Source of the DNA: a virus
Lineage: Duplodnaviria > Heunggongvirae > Uroviricota > Caudoviricetes
Virus record (IMG/VR): IMGVR_UViG_2874945390_000004
Reading direction: 5' to 3' (one strand)
DNA length: 33,121 nucleotides
Of this stretch, positions 1 through 33,121 are shown in pieces; the first letter of the stretch is position 1, and each line of letters starts with the position of its first letter. A program made the translations under genes and the position numbers. The notes under the pieces were generated by a model, which was not told the origin of the DNA, searched no databases, and saw only the letters and a list, made by a program, of their open reading frames with translations.

Positions 1-318
1 ATGAAAAAGATAGCTGCTATATCATTAATTAGTATTTTTCTTATATCTGGTTGTGCTGTGCATAATGATGAAACAAGTATCGGTAAATTTGGTCTTGCAT
101 ATAAAAGTAATATTCAGCGTAAACTCGATAACCAATACTACACCGAAGCCGAAGCTTCTTTAGCCAGGGGCAGAATATCTGGTGCAGAAAATATAGTAAA
201 AAATGATGCAGCCCATTTCTGTGTTACTCAGGGCAAAAAAATGCAGATAGTTGACCTGAAGACAGAAGGTGCAGGATTACATGGCGTCGCTCGTCTGACA
301 TTCAAATGTGGAGAGTGA
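1..318 (+). CDS. yegR: Putative lipoprotein, YegR-like host gene (105 aa)
   Basis: Full ORF with a lipoprotein-type signal peptide and lipobox (LISGC). Size and position opposite cyaR/yegQ match the E. coli yegQ-cyaR-ogrK-yegZ-yegR locus as recalled. GC content is host-like. Confidence 0.6.
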   Translation: MKKIAAISLISIFLISGCAVHNDETSIGKFGLAYKSNIQRKLDNQYYTEAEASLARGRISGAENIVKNDAAHFCVTQGKKMQIVDLKTEGAGLHGVARLTFKCGE

Positions 319-488
319 GAATATTTTTTGGTAAGCGTCAAACATGCGCGTTCTGGCTGTGCGTAGCCGGAACCTGGGCGAGCACGATACCGTTACGTGA
401 AAGGCATTGTGCTATGAAGGGGGATTCTATCGATGTGGTCAATGGAAGACGGTTATCAGGGATCAATCCTTCTTTACAGCTTATGTAC

Positions 489-515
489 AAAAAATAAGCC
501 CGTGTAAGGGAGATT
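489..515. repeat. attL core: 27-bp direct repeat identical to 31589..31615
   Basis: AAAAAATAAGCCCGTGTAAGGGAGATT occurs exactly at 489..515 and 31589..31615, bracketing the phage gene block with int adjacent to the left copy. Confidence 0.8.
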
Positions 516-1723: not shown

Positions 1724-2023
1724 TTAACCAGTCTTTTGACCGGAGTGGGGCGACGTTGTTTCGTTTTGCCCAAAGTGTGCGAGAGCGGGCGCAATTTGCC
1801 CGGCTTCTGGAGCTACCTGATCAGTCATGAACCACAAAGTATATTTAGTAAATCTGGGATGTTGTAAGACCTTCATTATGGCTTCAACTCCAGCGTTTTT
1901 TGACCGGCTCTCATAGCTCGAAAGTGAGCTGTAGGCTACACCAGTTAATTCACTGAATTCTTTACGGTTTAACCTTTCAGATTCACGGATTAGCTTCAAC
2001 TTCTCCGAAACGTCTATTGACAT
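1724..2023 (-). CDS. C: Immunity repressor C (99 aa, HTH)
   Basis: Start chosen at the internal ATG (MSIDVSEKLKLIRESE...) with a GGAG ribosome-binding site. The C-terminus QIAPALAHFGQNETTSPHSGQKTG matches P2 C as recalled. Divergent from cox. Confidence 0.85.
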   Translation of the reverse strand: MSIDVSEKLKLIRESERLNRKEFSELTGVAYSSLSSYESRSKNAGVEAIMKVLQHPRFTKYTLWFMTDQVAPEAGQIAPALAHFGQNETTSPHSGQKTG

Positions 2024-2100
2024 AATTACTCCGATTGCGTAATTTCTTGCTGATAGTGTGAAATGTTGTGCTTCTGGAGTTATCCTTTTAGGCAATAATT

Positions 2101-2144: not shown

Positions 2145-2420
2145 ATGAATAGACAGCTTGTAAGCGTGACTGATGCCGTGCCTTATCAGGAGTTTGCAAA
2201 ACTCATTGGTAAAACTCCAAGAGCTGTAAGGGGCATGATTGAGAAAGGGAAATTACCAGTTATTGAGATTACTGACCCTCAGTCAGTATCGGGGCGTGCT
2301 GGTGAATATTGGGTATACCTTCCGGCATGGAATAACGGACTAAAACTGGCTTATGAAAGCCGTCCTAAAGAGATTCGTGACGGCTGGTTGATGTGGTTAG
2401 GTCTCGGTGAACCACGTTAA
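2145..2420 (+). CDS. cox: Cox (excisionase / control of excision, 91 aa)
   Basis: 91-aa ORF divergent from C with an AAGGGAG ribosome-binding site; size and sequence (MNRQLVSVTDAVPYQEFAKLIGKTPRAVRGMIEKGKLP) match P2 Cox as recalled. Confidence 0.9.
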   Translation: MNRQLVSVTDAVPYQEFAKLIGKTPRAVRGMIEKGKLPVIEITDPQSVSGRAGEYWVYLPAWNNGLKLAYESRPKEIRDGWLMWLGLGEPR

Positions 2421-4184: not shown

Positions 4185-6459
4185 AGCCTCCGGGCGTTTT
4201 GTCCCTCCGTCAGCATTTGCCGCAGGCACCGGTGAGACGTTTACCGGTGCTTATGCATGGAACGCGCCACGCGAGGCCGTCGGGCGAGAAAGACCTCTTA
4301 CACGTGACGAGATGCGTCAGGTGCAAGGTGTTTTATCCACGATAAATCGCCTGCCTTATTTTTTGCGCTCGCTGTTTACTTCACGCTATGACTACATCCG
4401 GCGCAATAAAAGCCCGGTGCACGGGTTTTATTTCCTCACATCCACTTTTCAGCGTCGTTTATGGCCGCGTATTGAGCGTGTGAATCAGCGCCATGAAATG
4501 AACACCGACGCGTCGTTGCTGTTTTTGGCAGAGCGTGACCACTATGCACGCCTGCCGGGAATGAATGACAAGGAGCTGAAAAAGTTTGCCGCCCGTATCT
4601 CATCGCAGCTTTTCATGATGTATGAGGAACTCTGCGATGCCTGGGTGGATGCGCATGGCGAAAAAGAATCGCTGTTTACGGATGAGGCGCAGGCTCACCT
4701 GTATGGTCATGTTGCTGGCGCTGCACGTGCTTTCAATATTCCCCCTCTCTACTGGAAAAAATACCGTAAAGGGCAGATGACCACGAGGCAGGCATATTCT
4801 GCCATTGCCCGTCTGTTTAACGATGAGTGGTGGACTCATCAGCTTAAAGGCCAGCGTATGCGTTGGCATGAGGCGTTACTGATTGCTGTCGGGGAGGTAA
4901 ATAAAGACCGTTCACCTTATGCCAGTAAACATGCTATTCGTGATGTGCGTGCGCGCCGCCAGGCAAATCTGGAATTTCTTAAATCGTGTGACCTTGAAAA
5001 CAGGGAAACCGGCGAACGCATCGACCTTATCAGTAAGGTGATGGGCAGTATTTCTAATCCAGAAATTCGCCGGATGGAGCTGATGAACACCATCGCCGGA
5101 ATTGAGCGTTACGCCGCCGCAGAGGGTGATGTGGGGATGTTTATCACGCTGACCGCGCCGTCAAAGTATCACCCGACACGTCAGGTCGGAAAAGGCGAAA
5201 GTAAAACCGTCCAGCTTAATCACGGCTGGAACCATGAGGCATTTAATCCAAAGGATGCGCAGCGTTATCTCTGCCGTATCTGGAGCCTGATGCGCACGGC
5301 ATTCAAGGATAATGATTTACAGGCCTACGGTTTGCGTGTCGTTGAGCCACACCACGACGGAACGCCGCACTGGCATATGATGCTTTTTTGTAATCCACGC
5401 CAGCGTAACCAGATTATTGAAATCATGCGTCGCTACGCGCTCAAAGAGGATGGAGACGAAAGAGGAGCTGCGCGAAACCGTTTTCAGGCAAAACACCTTA
5501 ACCGGGGCGGTGCTGCGGGATATATCGCGAAATACATTTCAAAAAACATCGACGGCTATGCACTGGATGGTCAGCTCGATAACGATACCGGCAGGCCGCT
5601 GAAAGACACTGCCGCGGCTGTTACCGCATGGGCGTCAACGTGGCGCATTCCGCAATTTAAAACGGTTGGCCTGCCGACAATGGGGGCTTACCGTGAACTA
5701 CGCAAATTGCCTCGCGGCGTCAGCATTGCTGATGAGTTTGACGAACGCGTCGAGGCTGCACGCGCTGCCGCAGACAGTGGCGATTTTGCGCTGTATATCA
5801 GCGCGCAGGGTGGGGCAAATGTCCCGCGCGATTGTCAGACTGTCAGGGTCGCCCGTAGCCCGTCGGATGACGTTAACGAGTACGAGGAAGAGGTCGAGAG
5901 AGTGGTCGGCATTTACGCGCCGCATCTCGGTGCGCGTCATATTCATATCACCAGAACGACGGACTGGCGCATTGTGCCGAAAGTACCGGTCGTTGAGCCT
6001 TTGACTTTAAAAAGCGGCATCGCCGCGCCTCGGAGTCCTGTCAATAACTGTGGAAAGCTCACCGGTGGTGATACTTCGTTACCGGCTCCCACACCTTCTG
6101 AGCACGCCGCAGCAGTGCTTAATCTGGTTGATGACGGTGTTATCGAATGGAGTGACCCGGAGGTCGTGAGGGCGCTCAGAGGTGCATTAAAACACGGTCG
6201 GAGAACGCCAGGTCGTCAGCAAAGAAACGGAAGCCCGTTAAAACCACATGAAATTGCACCATCGGCCAGACTGACCCGGTCGGAAAGAATGCAAATTACC
6301 CGTATCCGCGTTGACCTTGCTCAGAACGGTATCAGGCCTCAGCGATGGGAGCTTGAGGCGCTGGCGCGTGGAGCGACCGTAAATTATGACGGGAAAAAAT
6401 TCACGTATCCGGTCGCTGATGAGTGGCCGGGATTCTCAACAGTAATGGAGTGGACATAA
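4174..6459 (+). CDS. A: Replication initiation endonuclease A (rolling-circle initiator, 761 aa)
   Basis: Start placed at MAVKASGRFVPPSAF (ATG 4174), giving 761 aa as in P2 gpA; contains the HUH-type region (PHWHMMLF) and an AAGYIAKYISK motif. Confidence 0.95.
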   Translation: MAVKASGRFVPPSAFAAGTGETFTGAYAWNAPREAVGRERPLTRDEMRQVQGVLSTINRLPYFLRSLFTSRYDYIRRNKSPVHGFYFLTSTFQRRLWPRIERVNQRHEMNTDASLLFLAERDHYARLPGMNDKELKKFAARISSQLFMMYEELCDAWVDAHGEKESLFTDEAQAHLYGHVAGAARAFNIPPLYWKKYRKGQMTTRQAYSAIARLFNDEWWTHQLKGQRMRWHEALLIAVGEVNKDRSPYASKHAIRDVRARRQANLEFLKSCDLENRETGERIDLISKVMGSISNPEIRRMELMNTIAGIERYAAAEGDVGMFITLTAPSKYHPTRQVGKGESKTVQLNHGWNHEAFNPKDAQRYLCRIWSLMRTAFKDNDLQAYGLRVVEPHHDGTPHWHMMLFCNPRQRNQIIEIMRRYALKEDGDERGAARNRFQAKHLNRGGAAGYIAKYISKNIDGYALDGQLDNDTGRPLKDTAAAVTAWASTWRIPQFKTVGLPTMGAYRELRKLPRGVSIADEFDERVEAARAAADSGDFALYISAQGGANVPRDCQTVRVARSPSDDVNEYEEEVERVVGIYAPHLGARHIHITRTTDWRIVPKVPVVEPLTLKSGIAAPRSPVNNCGKLTGGDTSLPAPTPSEHAAAVLNLVDDGVIEWSDPEVVRALRGALKHGRRTPGRQQRNGSPLKPHEIAPSARLTRSERMQITRIRVDLAQNGIRPQRWELEALARGATVNYDGKKFTYPVADEWPGFSTVMEWT
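6025..6044 (+). other. Candidate replication origin / gpA nick-site region inside the 3' part of A
   Basis: The P2 origin is known to lie inside the A coding sequence; GCGCCTCGGAGTCCTGTCAA matches the nick-site region as I recall it. Exact sequence recall is uncertain. Confidence 0.3.
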
Positions 6460-6911
6460 TGGCAAAAATTCACGAGGTAAAGCTGCACGCGAAATATTTC
6501 GACCTTGTGCTGGAAGGAAAGAAACGTGCAGAGTTCCGGAAAAATGACCGTAATTATGAGCGCGGGGACACGTTGATTTTGCATGAATGGGTGCAGGGTG
6601 TGTATACGGGGCGAAAGGTTGAAGCCCGGATAACAGATGTTACTGACCTGTCAGACTGGCTGGAAGATTATGTCTTGCTAAGTATTGAGCGGCTTAATAC
6701 AGGCGCATGTGAGATTGTGAACTGGAAAGAACTTAGTGAGCGTGGTCTGGTATTCAGAATTAATCATGAAATTATGCATCAGCTCGGCCTTGCTGTTATG
6801 TATGAACCAGAGACGGGGATGTCTGGCGGGGCAATGGTTGCCACGGATGGAGCATGGAACTATTCAGATGAACAGATGGAGCGTGCACAGCAAAACGGGT
6901 GGCTTGGATAA
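6459..6911 (+). CDS. DUF3850 / ASCH-like domain protein (150 aa)
   Basis: Start overlaps the A stop (TAATG). N-terminus KIHEVKLHAKYFDLVLEGKKRAEFRKNDRNYERGDTLILHEW resembles the DUF3850 (ASCH-like) fold family as recalled. Confidence 0.55.
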   Translation: MAKIHEVKLHAKYFDLVLEGKKRAEFRKNDRNYERGDTLILHEWVQGVYTGRKVEARITDVTDLSDWLEDYVLLSIERLNTGACEIVNWKELSERGLVFRINHEIMHQLGLAVMYEPETGMSGGAMVATDGAWNYSDEQMERAQQNGWLG

Positions 6912-7117
6912 TGCACAGAATACCAGGCGAGATACCGCACCATAAAACTAAAAATATCAAGCTGATGGCTATTGTTCAGCGTTTACAGCGGATTATGGTC
7001 AACGAAAATCTGACGCCGGATGAGCTGGTCGGGTGTGCCGAAATAGTACGGGATAATTACGGGCAGCTTAACTATATCGGTCAGTCCAGAGTTGCGCCAC
7101 CACCACGAAGACGATAG
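6911..7117 (+). CDS. Hypothetical protein (68 aa)
   Basis: ATG overlapping the upstream stop (TAATG); no recognisable motif. Confidence 0.4.
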   Translation: MHRIPGEIPHHKTKNIKLMAIVQRLQRIMVNENLTPDELVGCAEIVRDNYGQLNYIGQSRVAPPPRRR

Positions 7118-7340
7118 AGAACGCCGCCAGTCGTGAAACTTGTTTTCAGGGCTGGCGGGGTTGAACAACGAGCGAAGCGAGGCGTTAGTTGACAGACATA
7201 TTTTTACTGCGTTGGTGCCGGTTTTTGACGGTTGAAAGGAGTTAGGTTGGAGAGCTAACAACTTACAAATATTCAAAAGTAAGCATCCTGTTGCTAACAT
7301 GAGGTCGATTTTTTATGTGGATGATGTAAAAAGGATAGCT

Positions 7341-8072
7341 ATGGATACTATAATCGCTTTTCTATCACTCGCTTTTTTCGCTGCTTTCTTCATCGGGTTA
7401 ATCAAGCCATCACTGGTGCGAATGCCAAACCGCAAACGTGCAAGTGCGGTTTATCTCGGAGGAGGTTTTGTATTGAGCATAATTGGTTCAATACTCTATC
7501 CAACAGAAAAAAGCCAGCCAGTTGCTAAAACTGAAACATCAACCGTTGCAGAACACAAAGTCCAAAAAACATTCGAATATGGTGAAAAAACACTCAAGGA
7601 ATATCGGAACGAGTCAAAGAAAACACGACACGATATTGTGAATAGTTACATTGATTTTAAGGAAGTTCCAGCCACCGCGTCAGATGCGTTTTATGCCTGC
7701 ATGAGTGAGTATACATTTACCAAAGATGATGAGTTGAAACTCGGTGATGTTCTTGGGTGGTGCTTTAATGATTATGAAAATGACCCGAATTCACTAAACA
7801 ATAAAATCAATCTTGATACATTTCAGAGTAATTTTAGTGGTTGGGATGGTTCTTATCGTCCATTGGAAAAACTAATTAAAGATAATATGAACGATGATTC
7901 ATCTTATAAACATGTGTCAACGGTATATCATCTGGTTTTGAATAAAGACCCGCATGCCATTGTGAAAACCACGTTTCGCGGAACTAATGCTTATGGAGGA
8001 GTGGTGAAACAGACGATTGCTGCGCGTGTTGATATAAAAACTGGTAAGGTGATATCAATCATAGATAATTGA
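7341..8072 (+). CDS. Uncharacterised membrane-anchored protein (about 243 aa), cargo island 1
   Basis: AT-rich ORF with an AAGGA ribosome-binding site before ATG 7341 (alternative upstream starts at 7299 and 7314). N-terminus has two hydrophobic helices followed by a soluble domain with no motif I recognise. Followed by a terminator. Confidence 0.6.
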   Translation: MDTIIAFLSLAFFAAFFIGLIKPSLVRMPNRKRASAVYLGGGFVLSIIGSILYPTEKSQPVAKTETSTVAEHKVQKTFEYGEKTLKEYRNESKKTRHDIVNSYIDFKEVPATASDAFYACMSEYTFTKDDELKLGDVLGWCFNDYENDPNSLNNKINLDTFQSNFSGWDGSYRPLEKLIKDNMNDDSSYKHVSTVYHLVLNKDPHAIVKTTFRGTNAYGGVVKQTIAARVDIKTGKVISIIDN

Positions 8073-8081
8073 TATCTTACA

Positions 8082-8122
8082 ATGCCGACGCTGAATATTT
8101 AATTGGGTGTCGGCATTTTTTT
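8082..8122 (+). terminator. Rho-independent terminator
   Basis: 8-bp stem ATGCCGAC/GTCGGCAT followed by a run of seven T. Confidence 0.7.
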
Positions 8123-8182
8123 GACTATTAGAGCGGCAGAACCGAGATTTGTTACGTATGAGATTAGCACTGCGAGAATGTT

Positions 8183-8965
8183 ATGAAAGTTATAAACCAA
8201 CTTAAGAAGTTTGATAAGAAAAGAACGCCAGATGATGGCCGTATTAGTTTGTTATATGAAAACGCGATTAAGTATGATATGTACTCTGTATATATTAAAG
8301 ATAAAAATGATACAGAATACCTCTTTGACTGTTTGGTTGATGGGAAGATAAAGGCTTTTAAATGGGATGATGAGGAGCGTAGATTTCATATAAGTTCATA
8401 CTTGGATATTTCTGAGCTTACGCCTGATTCTTTTTTTGGTGTTTATTACTACCGTGCGCATGAGTTGCGATTTAACTCTTTAAATGATTTAACCTTTTTA
8501 AGGGAGTTGTTTTTTAGAGTGAAGTCTAATTATGAAAATATAAAGTTTAGTCGTGAAAAATATATTTATCGACAGCAAAAAAAAGAAATAATTGATGTGA
8601 TGCTTGTTCTCTCAACGATTATAAGAATGTATCGTGAACGGGATGCTGAAACTGTGTTTAGTGAGTTTTCAATAATGGCCGAAGTCGCTGGTAGTTTATG
8701 GGTATACCATGACGATAAAAACAGGATGCGTAAAGAGCTTCGTTTATGCCTGAATTCTCTTGTTCAGAATGGAGATCTTGTTGAAACAAGTAGTGGATTT
8801 AGGCTAACAGGAAAGGCACTGAACACAATATCTACATTCAATAAAGATGAGTTGCGGTACAGAGAGAATTTGAGCACTCAGAAGAAAATGTTTTGGGCTA
8901 CTTTTTTCGCAGCAGTCGGCGGCGTAGGAAGTATGATTGCAGCTATAATAGGGCTTCTAAAATGA
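8183..8965 (+). CDS. Uncharacterised protein with C-terminal transmembrane anchor (260 aa), cargo island 1
   Basis: AT-rich ORF; C-terminal hydrophobic segment MFWATFFAAVGGVGSMIAAIIGLL; no recognisable catalytic motif. Separate transcription unit after the terminator. Confidence 0.6.
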   Translation: MKVINQLKKFDKKRTPDDGRISLLYENAIKYDMYSVYIKDKNDTEYLFDCLVDGKIKAFKWDDEERRFHISSYLDISELTPDSFFGVYYYRAHELRFNSLNDLTFLRELFFRVKSNYENIKFSREKYIYRQQKKEIIDVMLVLSTIIRMYRERDAETVFSEFSIMAEVAGSLWVYHDDKNRMRKELRLCLNSLVQNGDLVETSSGFRLTGKALNTISTFNKDELRYRENLSTQKKMFWATFFAAVGGVGSMIAAIIGLLK

Positions 8966-9125
8966 GCCAACAAAATCGTATGATGAAGTATTGAGTGAAA
9001 AGCATTCTTTATATGCATTATTTTGCATGCAACATATGCTATACATTTTAGCTATGAATTGTCAGACGTGGCAGTACTTCTGTATGGTAATGCAACTGCA
9101 TTAAAACCGCCCCATGAAGCGGGCG

Positions 9126-18047: not shown

Positions 18048-18492
18048 GTTTAAGCGTTTTGAAGACCGGCTGACCGGACTGATTGAGTCGCTGTCACCGT
18101 CAGGGCGTCGGCGACTGAGTGCCGAACTGGCGAAACGTCTGCGGCAGAGTCAGCAGCGTCGGGTGATGGCACAGAAAGCCCCGGATGGCACACCCTATGC
18201 GCCACGCCAGCAGCAGAGCGCCAGAAAAAAGACCGGTCGCGTTAAGCGAAAAATGTTTGCGAAACTTATCACCAGTCGTTTTTTGCATATCCGCGCCAGC
18301 CCGGAACAGGCATCAATGGAATTTTACGGCGGGAAGTCACCGAAAATCGCCAGCGTGCATCAGTTTGGTCTGTCGGAAGAAACCCGGAAAGACGGTAAGA
18401 AAATTGATTATCCGGCGCGTCCTCTGCTCGGCTTTACCGGTGAGGATGTGCAGATGATTGAAGAGATTATCCTGGCTCACCTCGACCGTTAG
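18040..18492 (+). CDS. S: Tail completion protein S (150 aa)
   Basis: 150-aa ORF overlapping the R stop; P2 gpS size and position. Confidence 0.85.
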   Translation: MNEFKRFEDRLTGLIESLSPSGRRRLSAELAKRLRQSQQRRVMAQKAPDGTPYAPRQQQSARKKTGRVKRKMFAKLITSRFLHIRASPEQASMEFYGGKSPKIASVHQFGLSEETRKDGKKIDYPARPLLGFTGEDVQMIEEIILAHLDR

Positions 18493-18511
18493 TTGTGCCA
18501 TTCCCGACACC
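18493..18511 (+). promoter_or_regulatory. Candidate late-promoter activator site upstream of V
   Basis: TTGTGCCATTCCCGACACC about 60 bp upstream of the V start, sharing the TGTTGT-N-AC(C) pattern with the O and FI upstream regions. Confidence 0.3.
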
Positions 18512-18558
18512 TCATCGTTACATTGCCGCCGGTATGACCCGGCGGCATCCTTCCCGTT

Positions 18559-19224
18559 ATGAACACTCTCGCAAATATCCAGGAACTCGCGCGCGCACTG
18601 CGCAACATGATCCGCACCGGCCTTGTCGTCGAAACCAACCTTAAAGCCGGTCGCTGCCGTGTGCAGACCGGCGGCATGTGCACCGACTGGCTTCAGTGGC
18701 TGACCCATCGCGCCGGTCGTTCGCGCACATGGTGGGCACCTTCCGTGGGGGAGCAGGTGCTGATTCTGGCCGTGGGCGGTGAACTTGACACGGCGTTTGT
18801 TCTGCCGGGGATTTATTCCGGCGATAACCCCGCGCCGTCTGCGTCGGCGGATGCCCTGCATATCCGTTTCCCTGACGGGGCGGTGATTGAGTATGAACCC
18901 GAAACCAGTGCACTCACGGTAAGCGGAATTAAAACGGCCAGCGTGACGGCTTCTGATTCTGTTACTGCCACGGTGCCGGTGGTCATGGTGAAAGCATCAA
19001 CCCGCGTCACCCTGGACACACCGGAGGTGGTCTGCACCAACAGGCTGATTACCGGCACGCTGGAAGTGCAGAAGGGCGGGACGATGCGCGGCAACATTGA
19101 ACACACCGGCGGTGAACTCTCATCAAACGGTAAGGTACTGCATACCCATAAACACCCGGCGACAGCGGCGGCACAACCGGGAGCCCTCTATGACAGCGCG
19201 TTATCTCGGAATGAATCGCAGTGA
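18559..19224 (+). CDS. V: Baseplate spike protein V, with a C-terminal frameshift as sequenced (221 aa; 211 aa expected)
   Basis: Matches P2 gpV to ...HTHKHP. A G run at 19158..19159 appears one base short; the alternative frame reads GDSGGTTGSPL and stops at TGA 19191..19193, overlapping the W ATG (ATGA), which gives exactly 211 aa. Confidence 0.85.
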   Translation: MNTLANIQELARALRNMIRTGLVVETNLKAGRCRVQTGGMCTDWLQWLTHRAGRSRTWWAPSVGEQVLILAVGGELDTAFVLPGIYSGDNPAPSASADALHIRFPDGAVIEYEPETSALTVSGIKTASVTASDSVTATVPVVMVKASTRVTLDTPEVVCTNRLITGTLEVQKGGTMRGNIEHTGGELSSNGKVLHTHKHPATAAAQPGALYDSALSRNESQ

Positions 19225-20983: not shown

Positions 20984-23302
20984 ATGAGCACAAAATTCAG
21001 AACCGTTATCACCACTGCCGGTGCAGCAAAGCTGGCAGCGGCAACCGCACCGGGAGGGCGGAAGGTCAACATTACCACGATGGCCGTCGGGGATGGCGGT
21101 GGTAAATTGCCTGTCCCGGATGCCGGACAGACCGGGCTTATCCACGAAGTCTGGCGACATACGCTGAACAAAATCAGCCAGGACAAACGAAACAGTAATT
21201 ATATTATCGCAGAGCTGGTTATTCCGCCGGAGGTGGGCGGTTTCTGGATGCGTGAGCTTGGCCTGTACGATGATGCGGGAACGTTAATTGCCGTGGCGAA
21301 CATGGCCGAAAGTTATAAGCCAGCTCTTGCCGAAGGCTCAGGGCGTTCGCAGACCTGTCGCATGGTCATCATCGTCAGCAGTGTGGCCTCGGTGGAGCTG
21401 ACCATTGACACCACAACGGTGATGGCGACACAGGATTACGTTGATGACAAAATTGCAGAGCACGAACAGTCACGACGTCACCCGGACGCCTCGCTGACCG
21501 CAAAAGGTTTTACTCAGTTAAGCAGTGCGACCAACAGCACGTCTGAAACACTGGCCGCAACGCCGAAAGCGGTAAAGGCCGCCTATGACCTTGCTAACGG
21601 GAAATATACCGCACAGGACGCTACCACAGCGCGAAAAGGTCTTGTCCAGCTCAGTAGTGCCACCAACAGCACGTCTGAAACGCTTGCGGCAACGCCAAAG
21701 GCGGTTAAGACAGCGTATGACCTTGCTAACGGGAAATACACTGCACAGGACGCCACTACAGCGCGAAAAGGTCTTGTCCAGCTCAGTAGCGCCACCAACA
21801 GCGATTCTGAAACGCTTGCGGCAACACCAAAGGCGGTTAAGACAGCGTATGACCTTGCTAACGGGAAATACACTGCACAGGATGCCACCACAGCGCGAAA
21901 AGGTCTTGTCCAGCTAAGTAGTGCCATCAACAGCGATTCTGAAACGCTGGCCGCAACGCCAAAAGCAGTGAAGTCTGCCTATGACAATGCTGAAAAACGT
22001 CTTCAGAAAGATCAGAACGGTGCGGATATTCCGGGAAAGGATACCTTCACGAAAAATATCGGTGCCTGTCGTGCTTATAGCGGCGCTTTGAGCACTGAAG
22101 CCGGAAACTGGACAACCGCTCAGTTTATTGAATGGCTGGATTCCCGTGGTGCATTTAATCATCCGTACTGGATGTGCAAAGGCTCCTGGTCATATGCAAA
22201 TAACAAAATCATTACGGATACCGGATGTGGTGATATCCACCTGGCTGGTTGTGTCGTCGAGGTCATGGGAACAAAATCTGCAATCACTATTCGAGTGACC
22301 ACGCCGACAACATCAAGCGGTGGCGGTACAACCAGCGCGCAATTCACTTACATTAATCATGGGGACGGCTACTCCCCCGGCTGGCGTCGTGACTGGAATC
22401 GTCAGGGCGACGCAATGACCGGAACGATTAATCAGGATGGCGGAAGCCAGAATGCCTATATGTCTACGGCCTTATGTTCAGGCACCAGAGGCGGCAAAAA
22501 ATATCTCAGAAAGTTTCGTGGTGGAGAAGGAGACACTATCTGGCATGAAACAGTGCAGGGCGGGGTAATTCGCTGGGCGACAGGAAACTATGACGCTCAG
22601 GAAGAATTATCACTCAGCTCTGCTTATGGTCTTCGTTCAAGAGGTGAAATTACATCACTCAGTGCTAATGGTCTGCGCATTGCTTATGGCAATTATGGAT
22701 TCTTTATCAGGAATGATGGTGGCAGCACATATTTAATGCTGACGGCCTCTGGTGATAAATTTGGGACATGGAACGGTTTAAGGCCGCTGACTATCAATAA
22801 CGCTAATGGCGGAGTGTCAATGGGGCATGGCCTGAGTGTTACTGGTGATATTGCCTCAAGTACCAAAGTACGTGCCGGTAGCGGGAAAAAGTTCACGGTC
22901 AGCAGCAGCAATACATCCACGAAGGAAGCCGCATTCAATTTGTGGGGAAACTCAAGTCGTCCTGTGGTGGCTGAATTAGGTGATGATGCAGGCTGGCATT
23001 TTTACAGTCAGAGAAATACAGATAACAGCATCACTTTTGCTGTTAACGGGCAGGTATCACCATCTAACTATAGTAATTTTGATTCACGCTATGTCCGGGA
23101 TATCCGGCTTGGTGGTGCTGCCACATACAAACCTGCGAACAATGGCATGACATGGACACATCAGGCACCGTCCGGGTGTGTATATTCCGGCATTATTGTT
23201 CAGGATACCGGCTCAAACTCTGCCGATAACATTGGTGGCATATATTACAGACCGGTGCAGAAATACATTAACGGGACTTGGTATAACGTGGCGCAGGTAT
23301 AA
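20984..23302 (+). CDS. H: Tail fibre protein H (772 aa) with an expanded internal tandem repeat and a divergent C-terminal receptor-binding region
   Basis: N-terminal about 170 aa match P2 gpH (MSTKFRTVITTAGAAKLAAATAPGG...), followed by repeats of QLSSATNSTSETLAATPKAVKxAYDLANGKYTAQDATTARKGLV and a lower-GC C-terminal domain. Longer than the 669 aa I recall for P2 gpH. Confidence 0.9.
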   Translation: MSTKFRTVITTAGAAKLAAATAPGGRKVNITTMAVGDGGGKLPVPDAGQTGLIHEVWRHTLNKISQDKRNSNYIIAELVIPPEVGGFWMRELGLYDDAGTLIAVANMAESYKPALAEGSGRSQTCRMVIIVSSVASVELTIDTTTVMATQDYVDDKIAEHEQSRRHPDASLTAKGFTQLSSATNSTSETLAATPKAVKAAYDLANGKYTAQDATTARKGLVQLSSATNSTSETLAATPKAVKTAYDLANGKYTAQDATTARKGLVQLSSATNSDSETLAATPKAVKTAYDLANGKYTAQDATTARKGLVQLSSAINSDSETLAATPKAVKSAYDNAEKRLQKDQNGADIPGKDTFTKNIGACRAYSGALSTEAGNWTTAQFIEWLDSRGAFNHPYWMCKGSWSYANNKIITDTGCGDIHLAGCVVEVMGTKSAITIRVTTPTTSSGGGTTSAQFTYINHGDGYSPGWRRDWNRQGDAMTGTINQDGGSQNAYMSTALCSGTRGGKKYLRKFRGGEGDTIWHETVQGGVIRWATGNYDAQEELSLSSAYGLRSRGEITSLSANGLRIAYGNYGFFIRNDGGSTYLMLTASGDKFGTWNGLRPLTINNANGGVSMGHGLSVTGDIASSTKVRAGSGKKFTVSSSNTSTKEAAFNLWGNSSRPVVAELGDDAGWHFYSQRNTDNSITFAVNGQVSPSNYSNFDSRYVRDIRLGGAATYKPANNGMTWTHQAPSGCVYSGIIVQDTGSNSADNIGGIYYRPVQKYINGTWYNVAQV
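21515..21985 (+). repeat. Tandem repeat of 132 bp (44 codons), about 3.5 copies, inside H
   Basis: Near-identical units start at 21515, 21647, 21779 and 21911 (partial). The repeat also produces the spurious mirrored ORFs on both strands at 21583..21930. Confidence 0.9.
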
Positions 23303-23833: not shown

Positions 23834-23947
23834 GTTGTATGAGCTCTGGTGTGAGCTTACATATCTATGGCACAGAGTAAAGCCTAATCTGAGAGTCCGC
23901 TCTGTGCCAGAAGTAGACGCACAAGGTGGGCGTGTCTTTTTCTTAAG

Positions 23948-25365
23948 CTACATCGGGCTCTTATATGGGGAATGAGAGTTTTTGAAACGCGGTTCTTCAT
24001 GCTTCGGACTGTAAATTCTTGCATGATTATCTATCACAACTTTACTTCCAAGAATATCTCGAGCTTCTCCTAACGACCACACAGTAGAAAGATCATTAGT
24101 CAAATTTCGATAGAGAGCACGAAACCCCTTGGGTTTTTTAAGATCATATAAGAAATCAGGAACTTTAACTTTAAAATTAAAGGTCGGTAGTTTCGGAAGG
24201 GAATTAATAGCCGCAACAGTATTGTATACATGTACAAGCTTAGTTACAGGTACACCTTGTCTAGTCTTGAGCCCATACTTAGTTCGAATATAATCTGATT
24301 CTTTCGATACTTCAGTAAGCAATGCTCTTACTGACTTATTAGCTTGAGGCAATTCATTTTCATCAAACAAGCGCTTTATTTCTCGCATTTTCTCACGGGC
24401 CCTTACAAATTCGTTGTTGTCCCTTATGTTATAAGCAGCTTCAACAATACAACTTGGATCACCAGTTTCTTTTGCGAGCCATGCCGAAAATAAAGGAAGC
24501 GAAGTTGCTGTTGCTACAGCTTTACCACCAGAATGAATATCAATGAGATCATGACTTAACGAAGTGGAAAAGTTTTCTACAATATGTTTAGCATAGTCAA
24601 AACCATACTGACAGTTTTGGCTTAAATATGTCTGTTGATACGCCTGACGTAATGGATATAAAAAAGTATCTGCTTGAAGGTACTTAGCTGTGAGAGAATA
24701 AAATACTGCCCGATTAGCCAGCCATACAAGCGAAGCCACGAATGCTTTGATTGCATCTGATGCTTCACCAGCAGATGTGCCATCCCCCATTTTGCTCCGG
24801 GAACTTTGTACCCCTTGCGAATAGGGTTGCCAAATCGATCGAGAAGTTCAACATCGCCATTTGTTCTATTACCAGACTCAGCAGCATCACGCAGTTCTGA
24901 AAAAATGGCAGCAGCAATGTTACCATATTTTTCAAACTCCTTACCTCCATCAGATAAGTTCTTCAGTGTTAGATGATAAACACTTGAACTAATGTCCCAT
25001 GTACATATGATATGTGTCTGAAGAAGTTCAATTAGTTTTTTAAAATCGTCATTAACAAATGTTCCACCACGAATTTTAGGTTTCAATGCATCAGATATTT
25101 TTTTTTGCTTCACTTTCAATTTCATCCAACCCATATTGTGCTTTATCAAGAAATAATATCTCTCTGAAACTTGAAATCCTACTCCCACGGTACTCTGGAA
25201 TATAATCATCAACCGCGATAACGTGATCATAGAACAAAATAGACTGTATATAGTTCTCAAATGCTATTATGTCTGTATCTACTGAGTCCTTCGATCTTGT
25301 TTTTACTTTCCCTCGATTCTTTGGACTGCAGTTAGAGTTGAATTATCAATCAGTGCGTATGTCAT
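23948..25365 (-). CDS. Large uncharacterised leftward cargo gene (about 472 aa if three single-base frame breaks are repaired), P2 Z/fun position
   Basis: AT-rich. ATG at 25365 with an AAGGA ribosome-binding site opens MTYALIDNSTLTAVQRIEGK. Coding-like translation continues through three frame changes at homopolymer runs (G run near 25311..25313, A9 run 25093..25101, G5 run 24788..24792), joining the ORF-track pieces 24622..25260 and 23948..24790. No known domain recognised. Confidence 0.55.
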
Positions 25366-25682
25366 TTACATTCCTTAAATAAAAAACATTAATGGTTGCT
25401 CCAAAAATACTAGCAACCTTATTTCAGTGAAGTCAATTTTTTAACATTAATCATTTACACACGCTTGAAAAGTGATCGCTGAAAATGGCATTTACTACAT
25501 TATCAAAGTTCCCATCGAAGATAATCGAAATTTTTCCCGGTAGCAGATATCGTGAGATTTAACGCTTTTCGCTCATAGCAGGCTGTCAGATTTGATAGCG
25601 TTTGGGCTATGTAAACTGTCAGTCGGAAAATGAGTGTGTACAAATCAGGACATGCGGGCGAATTGCCCGCATTTTCTTTATC

Positions 25683-25775: not shown

Positions 25776-26606
25776 ATGAGTGACTATCATCACGGCGTGC
25801 AGGTGCTGGAGATTAACGACGGCACCCGCGTCATTTCCACCGTATCCACTGCCATTGTCGGCATGGTCTGCACGGCCAGCGATGCGGATGCGGAAACCTT
25901 CCCCCTCAATAAACCGGTGCTGATTACCAATGTGCAGAGCGCAATTGCAAAGGCCGGTAAAAAAGGCACGCTGGCGGCATCGTTGCAGGCCATCGCCGAC
26001 CAGTCAAAACCGGTCACCGTTGTCGTGCGTGTGGAAGACGGCACCGGCGACGACGAGGAAACGAAACTCGCGCAGACCGTTTCCAATATCATCGGCACCA
26101 CCGACGAAAACGGTCAGTACACCGGACTGAAAGCCCTGCTGGCGGCGGAGTCGGTAACCGGTGTTAAACCGCGTATTCTCGGCGTGCCGGGACTGGACAC
26201 CAAAGAGGTGGCTGTTGCACTGGCATCAGTCTGTCAGAAGCTGCGCGCTTTCGGGTATATCAGCGCATGGGGCTGTAAGACCGTTTCCGAGGTGAAAGCC
26301 TACCGTCAGAATTTCAGCCAGCGTGAGCTGATGGTCATCTGGCCGGATTTCCTCGCATGGGATACGGTCGCCAGTACCACCGCCACCGCGTATGCCACCG
26401 CCCGTGCGCTGGGTCTGCGCGCTAAAATCGACACCGGCGAGGGTAAACAGGGAGAAGACACCGAGTCGAAAATCTCCGTGGTCTGCACCTATTTCCGGCT
26501 GACGATGGACGGTAAGGAGCTGGTCGAAATCGACACCATCAACATGATTGAGAAGGTGAACGGCGTCGACCGGCTGGAGCAACACCGCCGCAATATCGGC
26601 CTGTAA
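25776..26606 (+). CDS. FI: Tail sheath FI N-terminal portion fused in frame to the tail tube FII C-terminus (276 aa; deletion derivative)
   Basis: The first ~230 aa match P2 sheath gpFI (MSDYHHGVQVLEINDGTRVISTVSTAIVGMV...ARALGLRAKID). The sequence then continues as TGEGKQGEDTESKISVVCTYFRLTMDGKELVEIDTINMIEKVNGVDRLEQHRRNIGL, which I recall as the C-terminus of P2 tube protein FII. E follows directly and no separate FII gene is present. Confidence 0.75.
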   Translation: MSDYHHGVQVLEINDGTRVISTVSTAIVGMVCTASDADAETFPLNKPVLITNVQSAIAKAGKKGTLAASLQAIADQSKPVTVVVRVEDGTGDDEETKLAQTVSNIIGTTDENGQYTGLKALLAAESVTGVKPRILGVPGLDTKEVAVALASVCQKLRAFGYISAWGCKTVSEVKAYRQNFSQRELMVIWPDFLAWDTVASTTATAYATARALGLRAKIDTGEGKQGEDTESKISVVCTYFRLTMDGKELVEIDTINMIEKVNGVDRLEQHRRNIGL

Positions 26607-29544: not shown

Positions 29545-30024
29545 ATGATGCTCGCGTTAGGTATGTTTGTTTTTATGCGCCAGACGCTGCCACACCAGAC
29601 CATGCAGCGTGAATCAGATTATCGCTGGCCGTCAAATTCCCGTATCGGTAAACGGGATGCCTTTCAGTTTCTCGGTGTGGGTGAGGAAAACATGACGCTT
29701 GCCGGCGTGCTTTATCCCGAACTGACCGGCGGGAATCTGACGATGACCACGCTCAGGCTGATGGCAGAGGAAGGCCGGGCGTGGCCGTTGCTGGATGGCA
29801 CCGGCATGATTTACGGCATGTATGTCATCAGCAGGGTGAGTGAAACAGGGAGTATTTTCTTTGCAGACGGCACACCCCGGAAAATTGATTTTACGCTGTC
29901 GCTCACCCGCGTGGATGAATCACTGGCCGCGCTTTATGGCGATATCGGTAAACAGGCGGAATCGCTCATCGGTAAGGCTGGCAGTGTGGCGACCAGATTC
30001 ACGGGTATGACGGGGGCGGGATAA
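29545..30024 (+). CDS. U: Tail protein U (159 aa)
   Basis: MMLALGMFVFMRQTLPHQTMQRESDYRW; 159 aa as in P2 gpU. Confidence 0.9.
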   Translation: MMLALGMFVFMRQTLPHQTMQRESDYRWPSNSRIGKRDAFQFLGVGEENMTLAGVLYPELTGGNLTMTTLRLMAEEGRAWPLLDGTGMIYGMYVISRVSETGSIFFADGTPRKIDFTLSLTRVDESLAALYGDIGKQAESLIGKAGSVATRFTGMTGAG

Positions 30025-31187
30025 TGCTGGATGCGCTGACATTTGATGCAGGCAGTACGCTGACGCCGGATTACATGCTGATGCTCGACAGCAGGGATAT
30101 TACCGGCAATATCAGCGACCGTCTGATGAGCATGACCCTGACGGATAACCGGGGCTTTGAGGCTGACCAGCTTGATATTGAACTGAACGATGCCGACGGG
30201 CAGGTCGAACTGCCGGTTCGTGGTGCTGTTCTGACGGTGTATATCGGCTGGAAAGGTTTTGCCCTGGTATGCAAAGGGAAATTTACCGTTGATGAGGTTG
30301 AACACCGGGGCGCACCGGATGTGGTCACCATCCGCGCCCGGAGTGCAGATTTTCGCGGGACGCTCAATTCCCGCCGTGAAGGCTCATGGCATGACACCAC
30401 GCTCGGTGCGATTGTTGAGGCGATAGCCTCCCGTAACAAGCTGGAAGCCAGTGTCGCGCCGTCACTGGCCGGAATTAAAATCCCGCACATCGACCAGTCG
30501 CAGGAGTCTGATGCGAAATTCCTGACCCGTCTTGCTGAACGCAACGGCGGTGAGGTGTCGGTAAAAATGGGAAAACTGTTGTTTCTCAAAGCGGGGCAGG
30601 GGGTGACGGCCAGCGGTAAAAAAATCCCGCAGGTCACCATAACCCGCAGCGACGGCGACCGCCATCATTTTGCGATTGCTGACCGTGGAGCCTATACCGG
30701 CGTAACGGCAAAGTGGTTACACACCAAAGACCCGAAGCCGCAAAAGCAGAAGGTAAAACTGAAACGCAAAAAGAAAGAGAAACACCTGCGCGCACTGGAG
30801 CACCCGAAAGCGAAACCAGTCACGCAGAAGAAAGCGCCAAAAGTACCGGAAGCGCGCGAAGGTGAATACATGGCTGGTGAGGCTGACAATGTTTTTGCCC
30901 TGACTACGGTATATGCCACAAAAGCGCAGGCCATGCGCGCCGCTCAGGCGAAGTGGGATAAACTGCAACGGGGCGTTGCGGAGTTCTCCATCAGCCTGGC
31001 TACCGGTCGGGCAGATATTTACACGGAAACGCCGGTCAAAGTATCAGGCTTTAAGCGCGTCATAGACGAGCAGGACTGGACAATCACTAAGGTGACACAT
31101 TTTCTGAATAATAGCGGCTTCACGACGTCCTTAGAGCTTGAGGTCATGCTTTCTGATGTGGAGTACGAAACAGAAGATGATGGGTGA
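30024..31187 (+). CDS. D: Late control / tail protein D (387 aa)
   Basis: Start overlaps the U stop (TAATG); 387 aa as in P2 gpD. Confidence 0.9.
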   Translation: MLDALTFDAGSTLTPDYMLMLDSRDITGNISDRLMSMTLTDNRGFEADQLDIELNDADGQVELPVRGAVLTVYIGWKGFALVCKGKFTVDEVEHRGAPDVVTIRARSADFRGTLNSRREGSWHDTTLGAIVEAIASRNKLEASVAPSLAGIKIPHIDQSQESDAKFLTRLAERNGGEVSVKMGKLLFLKAGQGVTASGKKIPQVTITRSDGDRHHFAIADRGAYTGVTAKWLHTKDPKPQKQKVKLKRKKKEKHLRALEHPKAKPVTQKKAPKVPEAREGEYMAGEADNVFALTTVYATKAQAMRAAQAKWDKLQRGVAEFSISLATGRADIYTETPVKVSGFKRVIDEQDWTITKVTHFLNNSGFTTSLELEVMLSDVEYETEDDG

Positions 31188-31268
31188 TGTTTTTATTTTA
31201 TCTGTTTGTTTTATAAGGATAAATTAACTAAAATGGCACCATCAACAAAACCGGAAGAGGTGCTCGCG

Positions 31269-31487
31269 ATGTTTCATTGTCCTTTATGCCAGCATGCCGC
31301 ACATGCGCGTACAAGTCGCTATATCACTGACACGACAAAAGAGCGTTATCACCAGTGCCAGAACGTGAATTGCAGCGCCACGTTCATCACTTATGAGTCG
31401 GTACAGCGATACATCGTGAAGCCGGGAGAAGTCCACGCCGTAAGGCCGCACCCGTTGCCGTCAGGGCAGCAAATTATGTGGATGTAA
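31269..31487 (+). CDS. ogr: Late-gene transcription activator Ogr (zinc finger, 72 aa)
   Basis: Start MFHCPLCQHAAHARTSRYITDTTKERYHQCQNVNCSATF with a GAGGTG ribosome-binding site; Cys4 zinc finger; 72 aa as in P2 Ogr and E. coli OgrK. Confidence 0.9.
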   Translation: MFHCPLCQHAAHARTSRYITDTTKERYHQCQNVNCSATFITYESVQRYIVKPGEVHAVRPHPLPSGQQIMWM

Positions 31488-31498
31488 TTACAAACAGG

Positions 31499-31524
31499 AA
31501 GCCCCTCAGTCGAGGGGCTTTTTT
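31499..31524 (+). terminator. Rho-independent terminator downstream of ogr
   Basis: Stem AAGCCCCTC/GAGGGGCTT with a 4-nt loop followed by a T run. Confidence 0.75.
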
Positions 31525-31588
31525 GTCGATGTGGTCAATGTGTGGACGTGACCAGAAATAAATCCTTTTATTTCATTGTATTACGCGT

Positions 31589-31615
31589 AAAAAATAAGCC
31601 CGTGTAAGGGAGATT
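31589..31615. repeat. attR core: 27-bp direct repeat identical to 489..515; also the 3' terminator end of cyaR
   Basis: Exact 27-bp identity with 489..515; contains the stem-loop and U-tail of the cyaR terminator on the minus strand. Confidence 0.8.
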
Positions 31616-31675
31616 ACACAGGCTAAGGAGGTGGTTCCTGGTACAGCTAGCATTTTATGGGTTATGTTTTTCAGC
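31589..31675 (-). ncRNA. cyaR: CyaR (RyeE) Hfq-dependent small RNA, about 87 nt
   Basis: The minus-strand sequence GCTGAAAAACATAACCCATAAAATGCTAGCTGTACCAGGAACCACCTCCTTAGCCTGTGTAATCTCCCTTACACGGGCTTATTTTTT matches CyaR as recalled, including the CCUCCUU region and intrinsic terminator. It lies between yegQ and ogr as in E. coli. Confidence 0.75.
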
Positions 31676-31707
31676 GAAACGGATGATAACCTTAATAAAT
31701 GCAGCTG

Positions 31708-31727
31708 TATGTGATCGGTTTCTAAGA
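31708..31727 (-). promoter_or_regulatory. Candidate CRP-binding site of the cyaR promoter
   Basis: A TGTGA half-site followed by a degenerate second half-site (TGTGATCGGTTTCTAA), centred about 41 bp upstream of the inferred cyaR 5' end. CyaR is known to be CRP-activated; the site match is partial. Confidence 0.3.
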
Positions 31728-31759: not shown

Positions 31760-33121
31760 TCACTTACCGTGGGGGTTACGCGTGGTTTCCCCGGAGAAAT
31801 TACGCATTAGCAGCGCGTAATTTAGCTCAAGATCCTGCGGGACCGGGAGCCACACAGTATAACCATCGCCTGGTGCGACCGGCATAGCTTCGCCTTTGGC
31901 GTTTTCCATGTGCTCAAGGGTAAAGTTAATGTTGCCTTGCGGCGTCATCAGCTCAAGACTGTCGCCAACGGAGAATTTATTTTTCACCGCTACCGCTGCG
32001 AGGTCCCCCTTGCGCTCACCGGTAAACTCACCAACAAACTGCTGGCGGTCAGAAACTGAATAACCGTATTCGTAGTTCTGATAATCGTCGTGAGTATGAC
32101 GACGCAGGAAACCTTCGGTATAGCCACGATGCGCCAGACCTTCCAGAGTTTCCAGCAGGCTGGTATCGAACGGTTTTCCCGCAGCGGCGTCATCGATAGC
32201 TTTGCGGTAAACCTGTGCGGTGCGTGCGCAATAGTAGAAAGATTTGGTACGACCTTCGATTTTCAGCGAATGCACGCCCATTTTGGTCAGGCGTTCTACA
32301 TGGGCGATGGCGCGCAGATCTTTCGAGTTCATGATGTAAGTGCCGTGCTCATCTTCAAACGCGGTCATATACTCGCCCGGACGCTGGGCCTCTTCGATCA
32401 TAAACACTTTGTCGGTTGGCGCGCCGATACCCAGCGTCGGCTCAACATTTTGCACCGGAATCGGCTCGTACTTGTGTACGATGTTGCCAACGTCATCTTC
32501 TTTCCCTTCCTGGACGTTGTACTCCCAGCGGCAGGCGTTGGTGCAGGTACCCTGGTTCGGATCGCGCTTGTTGATATAGCCAGAGAGCAGGCAGCGACCG
32601 GAGTAGGCCATGCACAGTGCGCCGTGAACGAAGATCTCGATCTCCATATCCGGCACCTGATTGCGGATCTCTTCAATCTCTTCAAGCGACAGCTCGCGAG
32701 AGAGGATCACGCGGGTCAGGCCCATTTGCTGCCAGAATTTCACCGTCGCCCAGTTTACGGCGTTAGCCTGCACCGAGAGGTGGATCGGCATTTCAGGGAA
32801 GTGCTCACGCACCAGCATAATCAGCCCTGGATCGGACATAATCAGCGCATCCGGCCCCATTTCCACCACCGGTTTCAGGTCACGGATAAAGGTTTTCAGC
32901 TTGGCGTTGTGCGGTGCAATGTTGACCACGACATAAAACTTTTTCCCCAGCGCGTGGGCTTCATTGATGCCGAGCTGAAGATTTTCGTGGTTGAATTCGT
33001 TGTTGCGCACACGTAGGGAGTAACGCGGCTGGCCCGCATAAACAGCATCTGCGCCATAAGCGAAAGCGTAACGCATATTTTTCAGCGTTCCCGCCGGGGA
33101 AAGGAGTTCCGGTTTAAACAT
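31760..33121 (-). CDS. yegQ: Peptidase U32-family protein YegQ/TrhP (453 aa), host gene
   Basis: Full 453-aa ORF MFKPELLSPAGTLKNMRYAFAYGADAVYAGQPRY... matching E. coli YegQ as recalled; the start codon is at the window end. Confidence 0.85.
   Translation of the reverse strand: MFKPELLSPAGTLKNMRYAFAYGADAVYAGQPRYSLRVRNNEFNHENLQLGINEAHALGKKFYVVVNIAPHNAKLKTFIRDLKPVVEMGPDALIMSDPGLIMLVREHFPEMPIHLSVQANAVNWATVKFWQQMGLTRVILSRELSLEEIEEIRNQVPDMEIEIFVHGALCMAYSGRCLLSGYINKRDPNQGTCTNACRWEYNVQEGKEDDVGNIVHKYEPIPVQNVEPTLGIGAPTDKVFMIEEAQRPGEYMTAFEDEHGTYIMNSKDLRAIAHVERLTKMGVHSLKIEGRTKSFYYCARTAQVYRKAIDDAAAGKPFDTSLLETLEGLAHRGYTEGFLRRHTHDDYQNYEYGYSVSDRQQFVGEFTGERKGDLAAVAVKNKFSVGDSLELMTPQGNINFTLEHMENAKGEAMPVAPGDGYTVWLPVPQDLELNYALLMRNFSGETTRNPHGK

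Follow-up and report, generated by a model that had tools for sequence, protein, structure and literature searches.

The 33,121-nt stretch of viral DNA analysed here, called the window throughout, almost certainly contains a P2-type (Peduovirus) prophage at locI, the primary P2 site of E. coli, and this site is the last 27 bp of the small RNA gene cyaR. No sequence evidence against integration at locI/cyaR was found. The arrangement explains why the ogrK/yegZ remnant of K-12 lies beside cyaR and how the sRNA survives lysogeny. For annotation, it means that the prophage borders can be fixed to the base, that the 27-nt fragment at attL should not be called as a gene, and that cyaR should be recorded as intact. 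The features of the window are as follows.

1-318, plus strand: yegR, host gene flanking attL (annotated as such in the E. coli genomes that match this stretch)
430-488: relic P arm of P2 type in the host flank of attL; it has a single arm-type Int site, TCGATGTGGTCAATG, and an IHF region that is degenerate (blastn and alignment)
489-515, no strand: attL core, displaced copy of the final 27 nt of cyaR (exact repeat, equal to the P2 attP core)
532-629: P' side of att, with the Cox-binding region at 532-605 and the Int P' arm site at 603-629 (transferred from P2 24399-24472 and 24470-24496)
595-1608, minus strand: int, P2-type tyrosine integrase (Pfam Int_N 1.3e-24, Phage_integrase 5.7e-22; collinear with P2 int)
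1724-2095, minus strand: C-like HTH repressor, part of the immunity switch at 1724-2420 (Pfam HTH_3)
2145-2420, plus strand: cox, part of the same immunity switch (Pfam Phage_Cox 1.7e-42)
30024-31187, plus strand: gene D, tail/late control (Pfam Phage_GPD 1.1e-26)
31269-31487, plus strand: ogr, late-gene activator (Pfam Ogr_Delta 2e-21; coordinates from P2 ogr 24036-24254, the ORF being listed from an upstream TTG at 31206)
31498-31521: terminator hairpin of ogr and the F operon, convergent with cyaR (P2 annotation 24265-24288; hairpin found at 31499-31520)
31526-31590: P arm of attR, with Int arm-type sites at 31526-31553 and an IHF site at 31557-31590 (P2 24293-24320 and 24324-24357)
31589-31615, no strand: attR core, equal to the 3'-terminal 27 nt of cyaR (exact repeat, sequence comparison and fold)
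31589-31675, minus strand: cyaR, intact, 87 nt (Rfam RF00112; identity to the unoccupied site and K-12)
31597-31624, minus strand: predicted intrinsic terminator hairpin of CyaR, 11 pairs including one U-G, followed by UAUUUUUU (fold and terminator scan)
31710-31725, minus strand: CRP-like site TTAGAAACCGATCACA, which agrees with the consensus at 8 of 10 bases and has its centre at about -42 from the cyaR start, on the bacterial side
31760-33121, minus strand: yegQ/trhP, host gene on the attR side (Pfam Peptidase_U32; annotation of matching E. coli loci)

Attachment core and flanking sites

The 27-mer AAAAAATAAGCCCGTGTAAGGGAGATT occurs in two exact copies in the window, at 489-515 and 31589-31615. 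No third copy was found in the window with up to three mismatches allowed, and the chance expectation for a 27-mer repeat was 0 in 100 shuffles. The core is identical at 27 of 27 positions to the attP core annotated in P2 (GenBank AF063097, 24356-24382). The body of cyaR is present only once in the window, at attR beside ogr, and attL has just the 27 nt. The exact repeat at the cyaR 3' end and the single intact copy of the gene had both been claimed in the original prediction, and both were borne out.

The order of elements in the window is host flank, core and P' at attL, and P arm, core and cyaR at attR. The P' flank, taken as the 110 bp right of the attL core, is identical to P2. The P flank of attR is near-identical to P2 and contains TGTGGTCA and TGTGGACG; the arm-type consensus of Int is given as tgTGGaCa (PMC3448106). 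Arm-type Int, IHF and Cox sites were found around the core as they are in attP. The 27 nt of attL together with P' were also considered as a terminator of int and rejected: the minus-strand fold of 478-600 has no hairpin at the U tract (z = -1.6), and the terminator scan at attL found none.

The cyaR gene and its terminator

The Rfam model CyaR_RyeE (RF00112) matches the minus strand at 31592-31677 and scores 100.7 bits (E 3e-19), the gathering threshold being 47; the match spans model positions 1-85 of 85. The interval 31589-31675 corresponds to the 87-nt cyaR from its G start through the last base of the U tract. To the right of the attR core, 110 bp are identical to the unoccupied site and to K-12. 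Folding and the terminator scan predict that CyaR ends in a rho-independent terminator and U tail, its Hfq-binding module, composed of the 5' arm AGCCUGUGUAA, the loop UCUCCC, the 3' arm UUACACGGGCU and the tail. The core corresponds to RNA nt 63-89. The earlier equation of the core with the terminator hairpin and U-tail thus holds for the tail, the complete 3' arm, the loop and the two 5'-arm bases that adjoin it, and fails for the other 9 nt of that arm (window 31616-31624), which lie outside the repeat and are bacterial. The seed region and the promoter of cyaR likewise lie outside the repeat, on the bacterial side. A sigma-70 scan for the cyaR promoter found none; cyaR is described as CRP-dependent in the literature.

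The prophage between the cores

Judging from the nucleotide match to P2, positions 516-31588 are a P2-like prophage of about 31 kb between yegR and yegQ. Of the first 24.5 kb, 78% aligns to P2 (AF063097) with 96.5% nucleotide identity, and the blastn map is collinear with P2 through P' arm, int, C, cox, B, A, cos, Q, P ... D, ogr and P arm, giving a gene order from attL-int-C-cox at one end to D-ogr-attR at the other. P2 positions 18309-19191 (883 bp) are absent from the prophage, with the junction near 26425-26432. In the ORF at 25776-26606, N-terminal tail-sheath domains (FI) are fused to C-terminal tail-tube sequence (FII), and the set of essential morphogenetic genes is incomplete because of this fusion. 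Given the deletion between sheath and tube, the prophage is probably tail-defective and not a viable phage. The deletion touches viability and not the identity of the integration module, and by its sequence the att/int/cox module looks intact despite the loss in the tail genes.

Non-P2 cargo was found at two places in the prophage, at 6680-9125 replacing orf91-tin-old and at 23914-25562 replacing fun(Z), and both regions occupy positions of phage-exclusion genes in P2. The cargo ORFs at 7299-8072, 8183-8965, 23948-24790 and 24622-25260 had no PADLOC or Pfam match, and the ORF at 6423-6911 encodes an ASCH/DUF3850 protein. The tail-fibre gene (20984-23302) contains three tandem 132-bp units at 21502-21991, which are mutually 82-88% identical; the unit occurs once in gene H of P2.

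Proposed course of integration

We propose that the P2 tyrosine integrase, assisted by IHF, brought about recombination between attP and attB, whose 27-bp cores are identical. A crossover within the core would leave the host's original 3' segment of cyaR at attL, beside int, and the identical copy of the phage, followed by the P arm and the ogr terminator, would complete cyaR at attR. What remains bacterial is the promoter, together with the seed region and the terminator's 5' arm, and the loop-proximal 3' arm and U tail would be supplied by the phage. Because the two cores of the window are identical, the sequence of CyaR would be unchanged and normal production is expected.

Unoccupied sites and the K-12 remnant

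E. coli MS14386, which has no prophage at this place, shows the order yegR, a single 27-bp core at the cyaR 3' end, cyaR and yegQ. Comparison with an unoccupied locus had been proposed as a check in the original prediction, and an empty site lacking the 27 bp, named there as the contrary outcome, is not what was found. Among 5,426 complete E. coli genomes, the junction yegR-core-int was detected in 812 and the junction ogr-P arm-core-cyaR in 1,127. The difference of about 315 corresponds to K-12-like remnants and variants. For most of the other E. coli genomes the match starts at the first base of the core or just before it. Unoccupied genomes were taken as the complement of the ogr-junction count, as the direct count of 4,572 is inflated by pieces joined across the K-12 remnant.

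The order in K-12 (MC1061) is yegR, a D pseudogene (D'), ogrK, P arm, core and cyaR, and the 110 bp left of the K-12 core equal the attR of the window save for 1 nt. The presence of the ogrK/yegZ remnant beside cyaR is thus explained as the original prediction had it. MC1061 also retains a shortened attL core, AAAAAATAAGCCCGTGTA (L002 3478-3495), which is fused straight to the D pseudogene. The deletion that made the remnant therefore has one end inside the core, after position 18. We infer only that a break at this position would be compatible with an aberrant event at the place of crossover. A different rearrangement was observed in E. coli B7A (L245, NZ_CP035812.1 2975000-3013000), where a P2-like prophage extends from the attL at yegR past ogrK to pflB/focA, in place of cyaR/yegQ. 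No attR core was found at the pflB/focA end, and the layout of the locus suggests that the chromosome was rearranged, with one breakpoint at the end of the prophage or close to it.

Origin of the cyaR 3' end

The attL and attR cores are identical in the window, so that the origin of each attR base is unreadable from the window alone. Relatives with unequal cores are informative in this respect. In TK3889 (L246 595-621 and 34394-34420), the attL core beside the host flank reads AAAAAATAGGCCC... (TAGGCC), whereas the attR core beside cyaR reads AAAAAATAAGCCC... (TAAGCC) as in P2, core position 9 being G at attL and A at attR. The G allele also occurs at the 3' end of cyaR in unoccupied E. coli genomes that share this host flank, with 100% identity over 164 nt. 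These alleles indicate that integration moved the 3' end of the host cyaR to attL and put the phage copy into cyaR.

A second unequal pair comes from an IMG/VR prophage (L164/L201), with GCCTGCGT at attL and GCCCGTGT at attR. The two differ at core positions 13 and 15, which places the crossover right of position 15, within the stretch that specifies the terminator loop. As the counterpart, an unoccupied E. coli site combining the GCCTGCGT core with the flank of L201 was sought, and no full-length match was found; this flank is a diverged P arm from an older remnant. The earlier statement that cyaR is rebuilt by phage-derived sequence therefore stands for TK3889 and for L164/L201, and is invisible in the window, where the cores are the same.

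The cyaR site in other genera

A scan of species-representative genomes for cyaR gave at least 120 loci in Enterobacterales, and across these species (at least 120) the loop is conserved and the stem is variable. Among the matches listed, the exact P2 core was present in E. coli, in some Kluyvera and in one genome labelled Enterobacter hormaechei, and P arms of P2 type were found immediately 3' of cyaR in two Citrobacter species, in Buttiauxella, in an Enterobacter and in one more isolate. The P arms came from a search by P-arm motif and alignment, which was more sensitive than tblastn and detected five loci and the E. coli relic described below. By tblastn of the Ogr, D and Int proteins of the window against 120 species representatives, only Citrobacter youngae was found among the matches listed. 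The junction cores of P2-like prophages in IMG/VR are GCCCGTGT (93), GCCTGCGT (19) and GCCCGCGT (5), and the adjacent cyaR alleles match them. Taken together, the P arms in several genera and the matching IMG/VR cores point to the cyaR 3' end as an attachment site common to a clade of P2-like phages, with cores that track the host gene.

The overlap with cyaR could also be incidental, if the phage merely targeted an intergenic sequence of dyad symmetry and there were no selective link between the core and the sRNA. P2 does use secondary sites unrelated to cyaR, namely locH, locII and locIII. A review of the P2 group places integration of the P2 type mostly "between other genes" (PMC3448106), so that not every account stresses the overlap with an sRNA gene. 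Against this, P2-like prophages or P arms recur directly 3' of cyaR in the genera named above, and the IMG/VR cores vary in step with the 3' arm of the adjacent host cyaR, a covariation expected if the phage must carry the 3' end of the gene. We consider an incidental overlap unlikely. It is far less probable still, to the point of being negligible, that cyaR is an sRNA carried as phage cargo and not a host gene. This idea could draw on the position of cyaR, which adjoins ogr here and a phage remnant in K-12, but cyaR and its promoter stand next to yegQ in unoccupied sites as well, the cyaR pattern matched genomes of at least 120 species across Enterobacterales, and the P2 genome has only the 27-bp core without the cyaR body. 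The unoccupied sites refute it, and cyaR is best read as a host gene whose 3' end serves as the P2 attachment site.

A relic P arm at the host side of attL

The host flank of attL was found to resemble a P arm itself. By blastn, window positions 430-515 are collinear with P2 24293-24382, local alignments of the relic arm score 38-41 against at most 29 in 2000 shuffles, and the relic arm lies at a similar distance from the core as the true P arm. Among the matches listed for 120 species, P-arm scores above background were obtained only from the five occupied loci and E. coli. The relic arm, with TCGATGTGGTCAATG and a weaker resemblance to the P2 P arm around it, is present in K-12 (L002 3430-3477) and in all unoccupied E. 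coli sites examined (among them L001 2430-2477), and long and short alleles of it exist. Between yegR and the relic arm, at window 355-400, there is an inverted repeat that looks perfect, GAGCACGATACCGTTACGTGAAAGGCATTGTGCT, and it is conserved in unoccupied sites. The 3' arm of E. coli cyaR forms a U-G wobble against the bacterial 5' arm.

Judged by these alignments, the "empty" E. coli site appears to be the scar of an old attR and to have been used again. As the relic arm is found at unoccupied sites, the 3' end of E. coli cyaR is possibly such a scar. More generally, we tentatively suggest, as a possibility that we rate below an even chance, that P2-like phages repeatedly overwrite the 3' arm and U tail of the cyaR terminator and that the 3' end found throughout E. 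coli could be a fixed attR scar. If this were true, phage drive would govern the evolution of the Hfq-binding terminator module in a core sRNA, and phage cores and host 3' arms would co-vary across Enterobacteriaceae. The replacement of alleles, the relic arm and the covariation of core and allele offer a cheap and testable handle on how temperate phages shape sRNA terminators, as an incremental advance.

Effect of integration on CyaR

The original prediction had added that readthrough from the ogr side or changes in the terminator could affect the formation of the CyaR 3' end. No support for this was found in the window, where the U tract is unchanged and the downstream flank is as in K-12. 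In its wider form, the proposal is that a lysogen differs from a non-lysogen because the CyaR 3' end or termination efficiency is altered, or because convergent transcription of ogr and the F operon interferes. In its favour, the DNA beyond the U tract switches from host to phage, the T tract has 7 rather than 6 T in some unoccupied sites (L001 vs L073), and in hosts with the G allele one terminator base is altered by integration. The CyaR terminator is moreover leaky, with about 41% readthrough in a double-terminator assay on a plasmid in a K-12 delta-hfq strain (PMC9765468), and readthrough RNA would therefore cross the P arm, antisense towards ogr, and meet the ogr hairpin about 70 nt on.

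On the other side, cyaR of the window equals the unoccupied and K-12 alleles through the U tract. The DNA past it is like that of K-12 (110 bp, 1 nt off), and the junction is present in about 1,127 of 5,426 genomes. The ogr gene and the F operon have their own annotated terminator about 70 bp before cyaR, and the P2 late operons are silent in the lysogen. Readthrough into the P arm applies equally to K-12, the strain in which CyaR was characterised. The proposed difference between lysogen and non-lysogen is improbable on this evidence, and with alleles as they are in the window an effect on CyaR appears unlikely. A small effect is conceivable only where the host allele differs from the phage core.

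Comparison with known systems

The arrangement is already known and belongs to a textbook type. The locI site of P2, its 27-bp core and the ogr-D' remnant of K-12 were reportedly described by Barreiro and Haggard-Ljungquist in 1992. The window shares with P2 at locI and with the K-12 ogrK-D' (yegZ) remnant the 27-bp core, the arms and the layout of Int, Cox and IHF sites, as well as the flanking genes yegR, cyaR and yegQ and the position of ogr next to cyaR. It differs from P2 at 6.7-9.1 kb (orf91-tin-old) and 23.9-25.6 kb (fun(Z)), in the triplicated 132-bp tail-fibre unit and in the sheath-tube deletion. In the E. coli W genome paper (2011), Wphi2 (P2), the K-12 ogr-D' and P2*B of strain B are all entered with "cyaR RNA" as their insertion site (PMC3032704 Table 2).

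As a member of the CyaR/RyeE family (RF00112), the gene in the window has the full-length match, the conserved seed and terminator loop, the synteny with yegQ and the CRP-like site at about -42. No difference from the family was found in its sequence; as in K-12, phage-derived DNA is confined to the part downstream of the U tract.

Integration into the 3' ends of RNA genes with reconstitution of the gene is a classical principle (PMC3448106). Comparable cases among temperate phages and islands, in tRNA, tmRNA and sRNA genes, are 186 in tRNA-Ile, HP1 in tRNA-Leu, Fels-2 and SopE-phi in ssrA, P2-like elements at rybB and phages at sdsR. In these systems as in the window, the core covers the 3' end of a structured RNA, and one junction has the intact gene and the other a 3' fragment. 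The replacement 3' end is supplied by the phage in these systems, and presumably in the window as well. In contrast to them, the core of the window is short, its 27 bp being exceeded by the cores of the 186-type integrases (PMC3448106), and it covers the loop, 3' arm and U tail of an intrinsic terminator without any tRNA-like domain.
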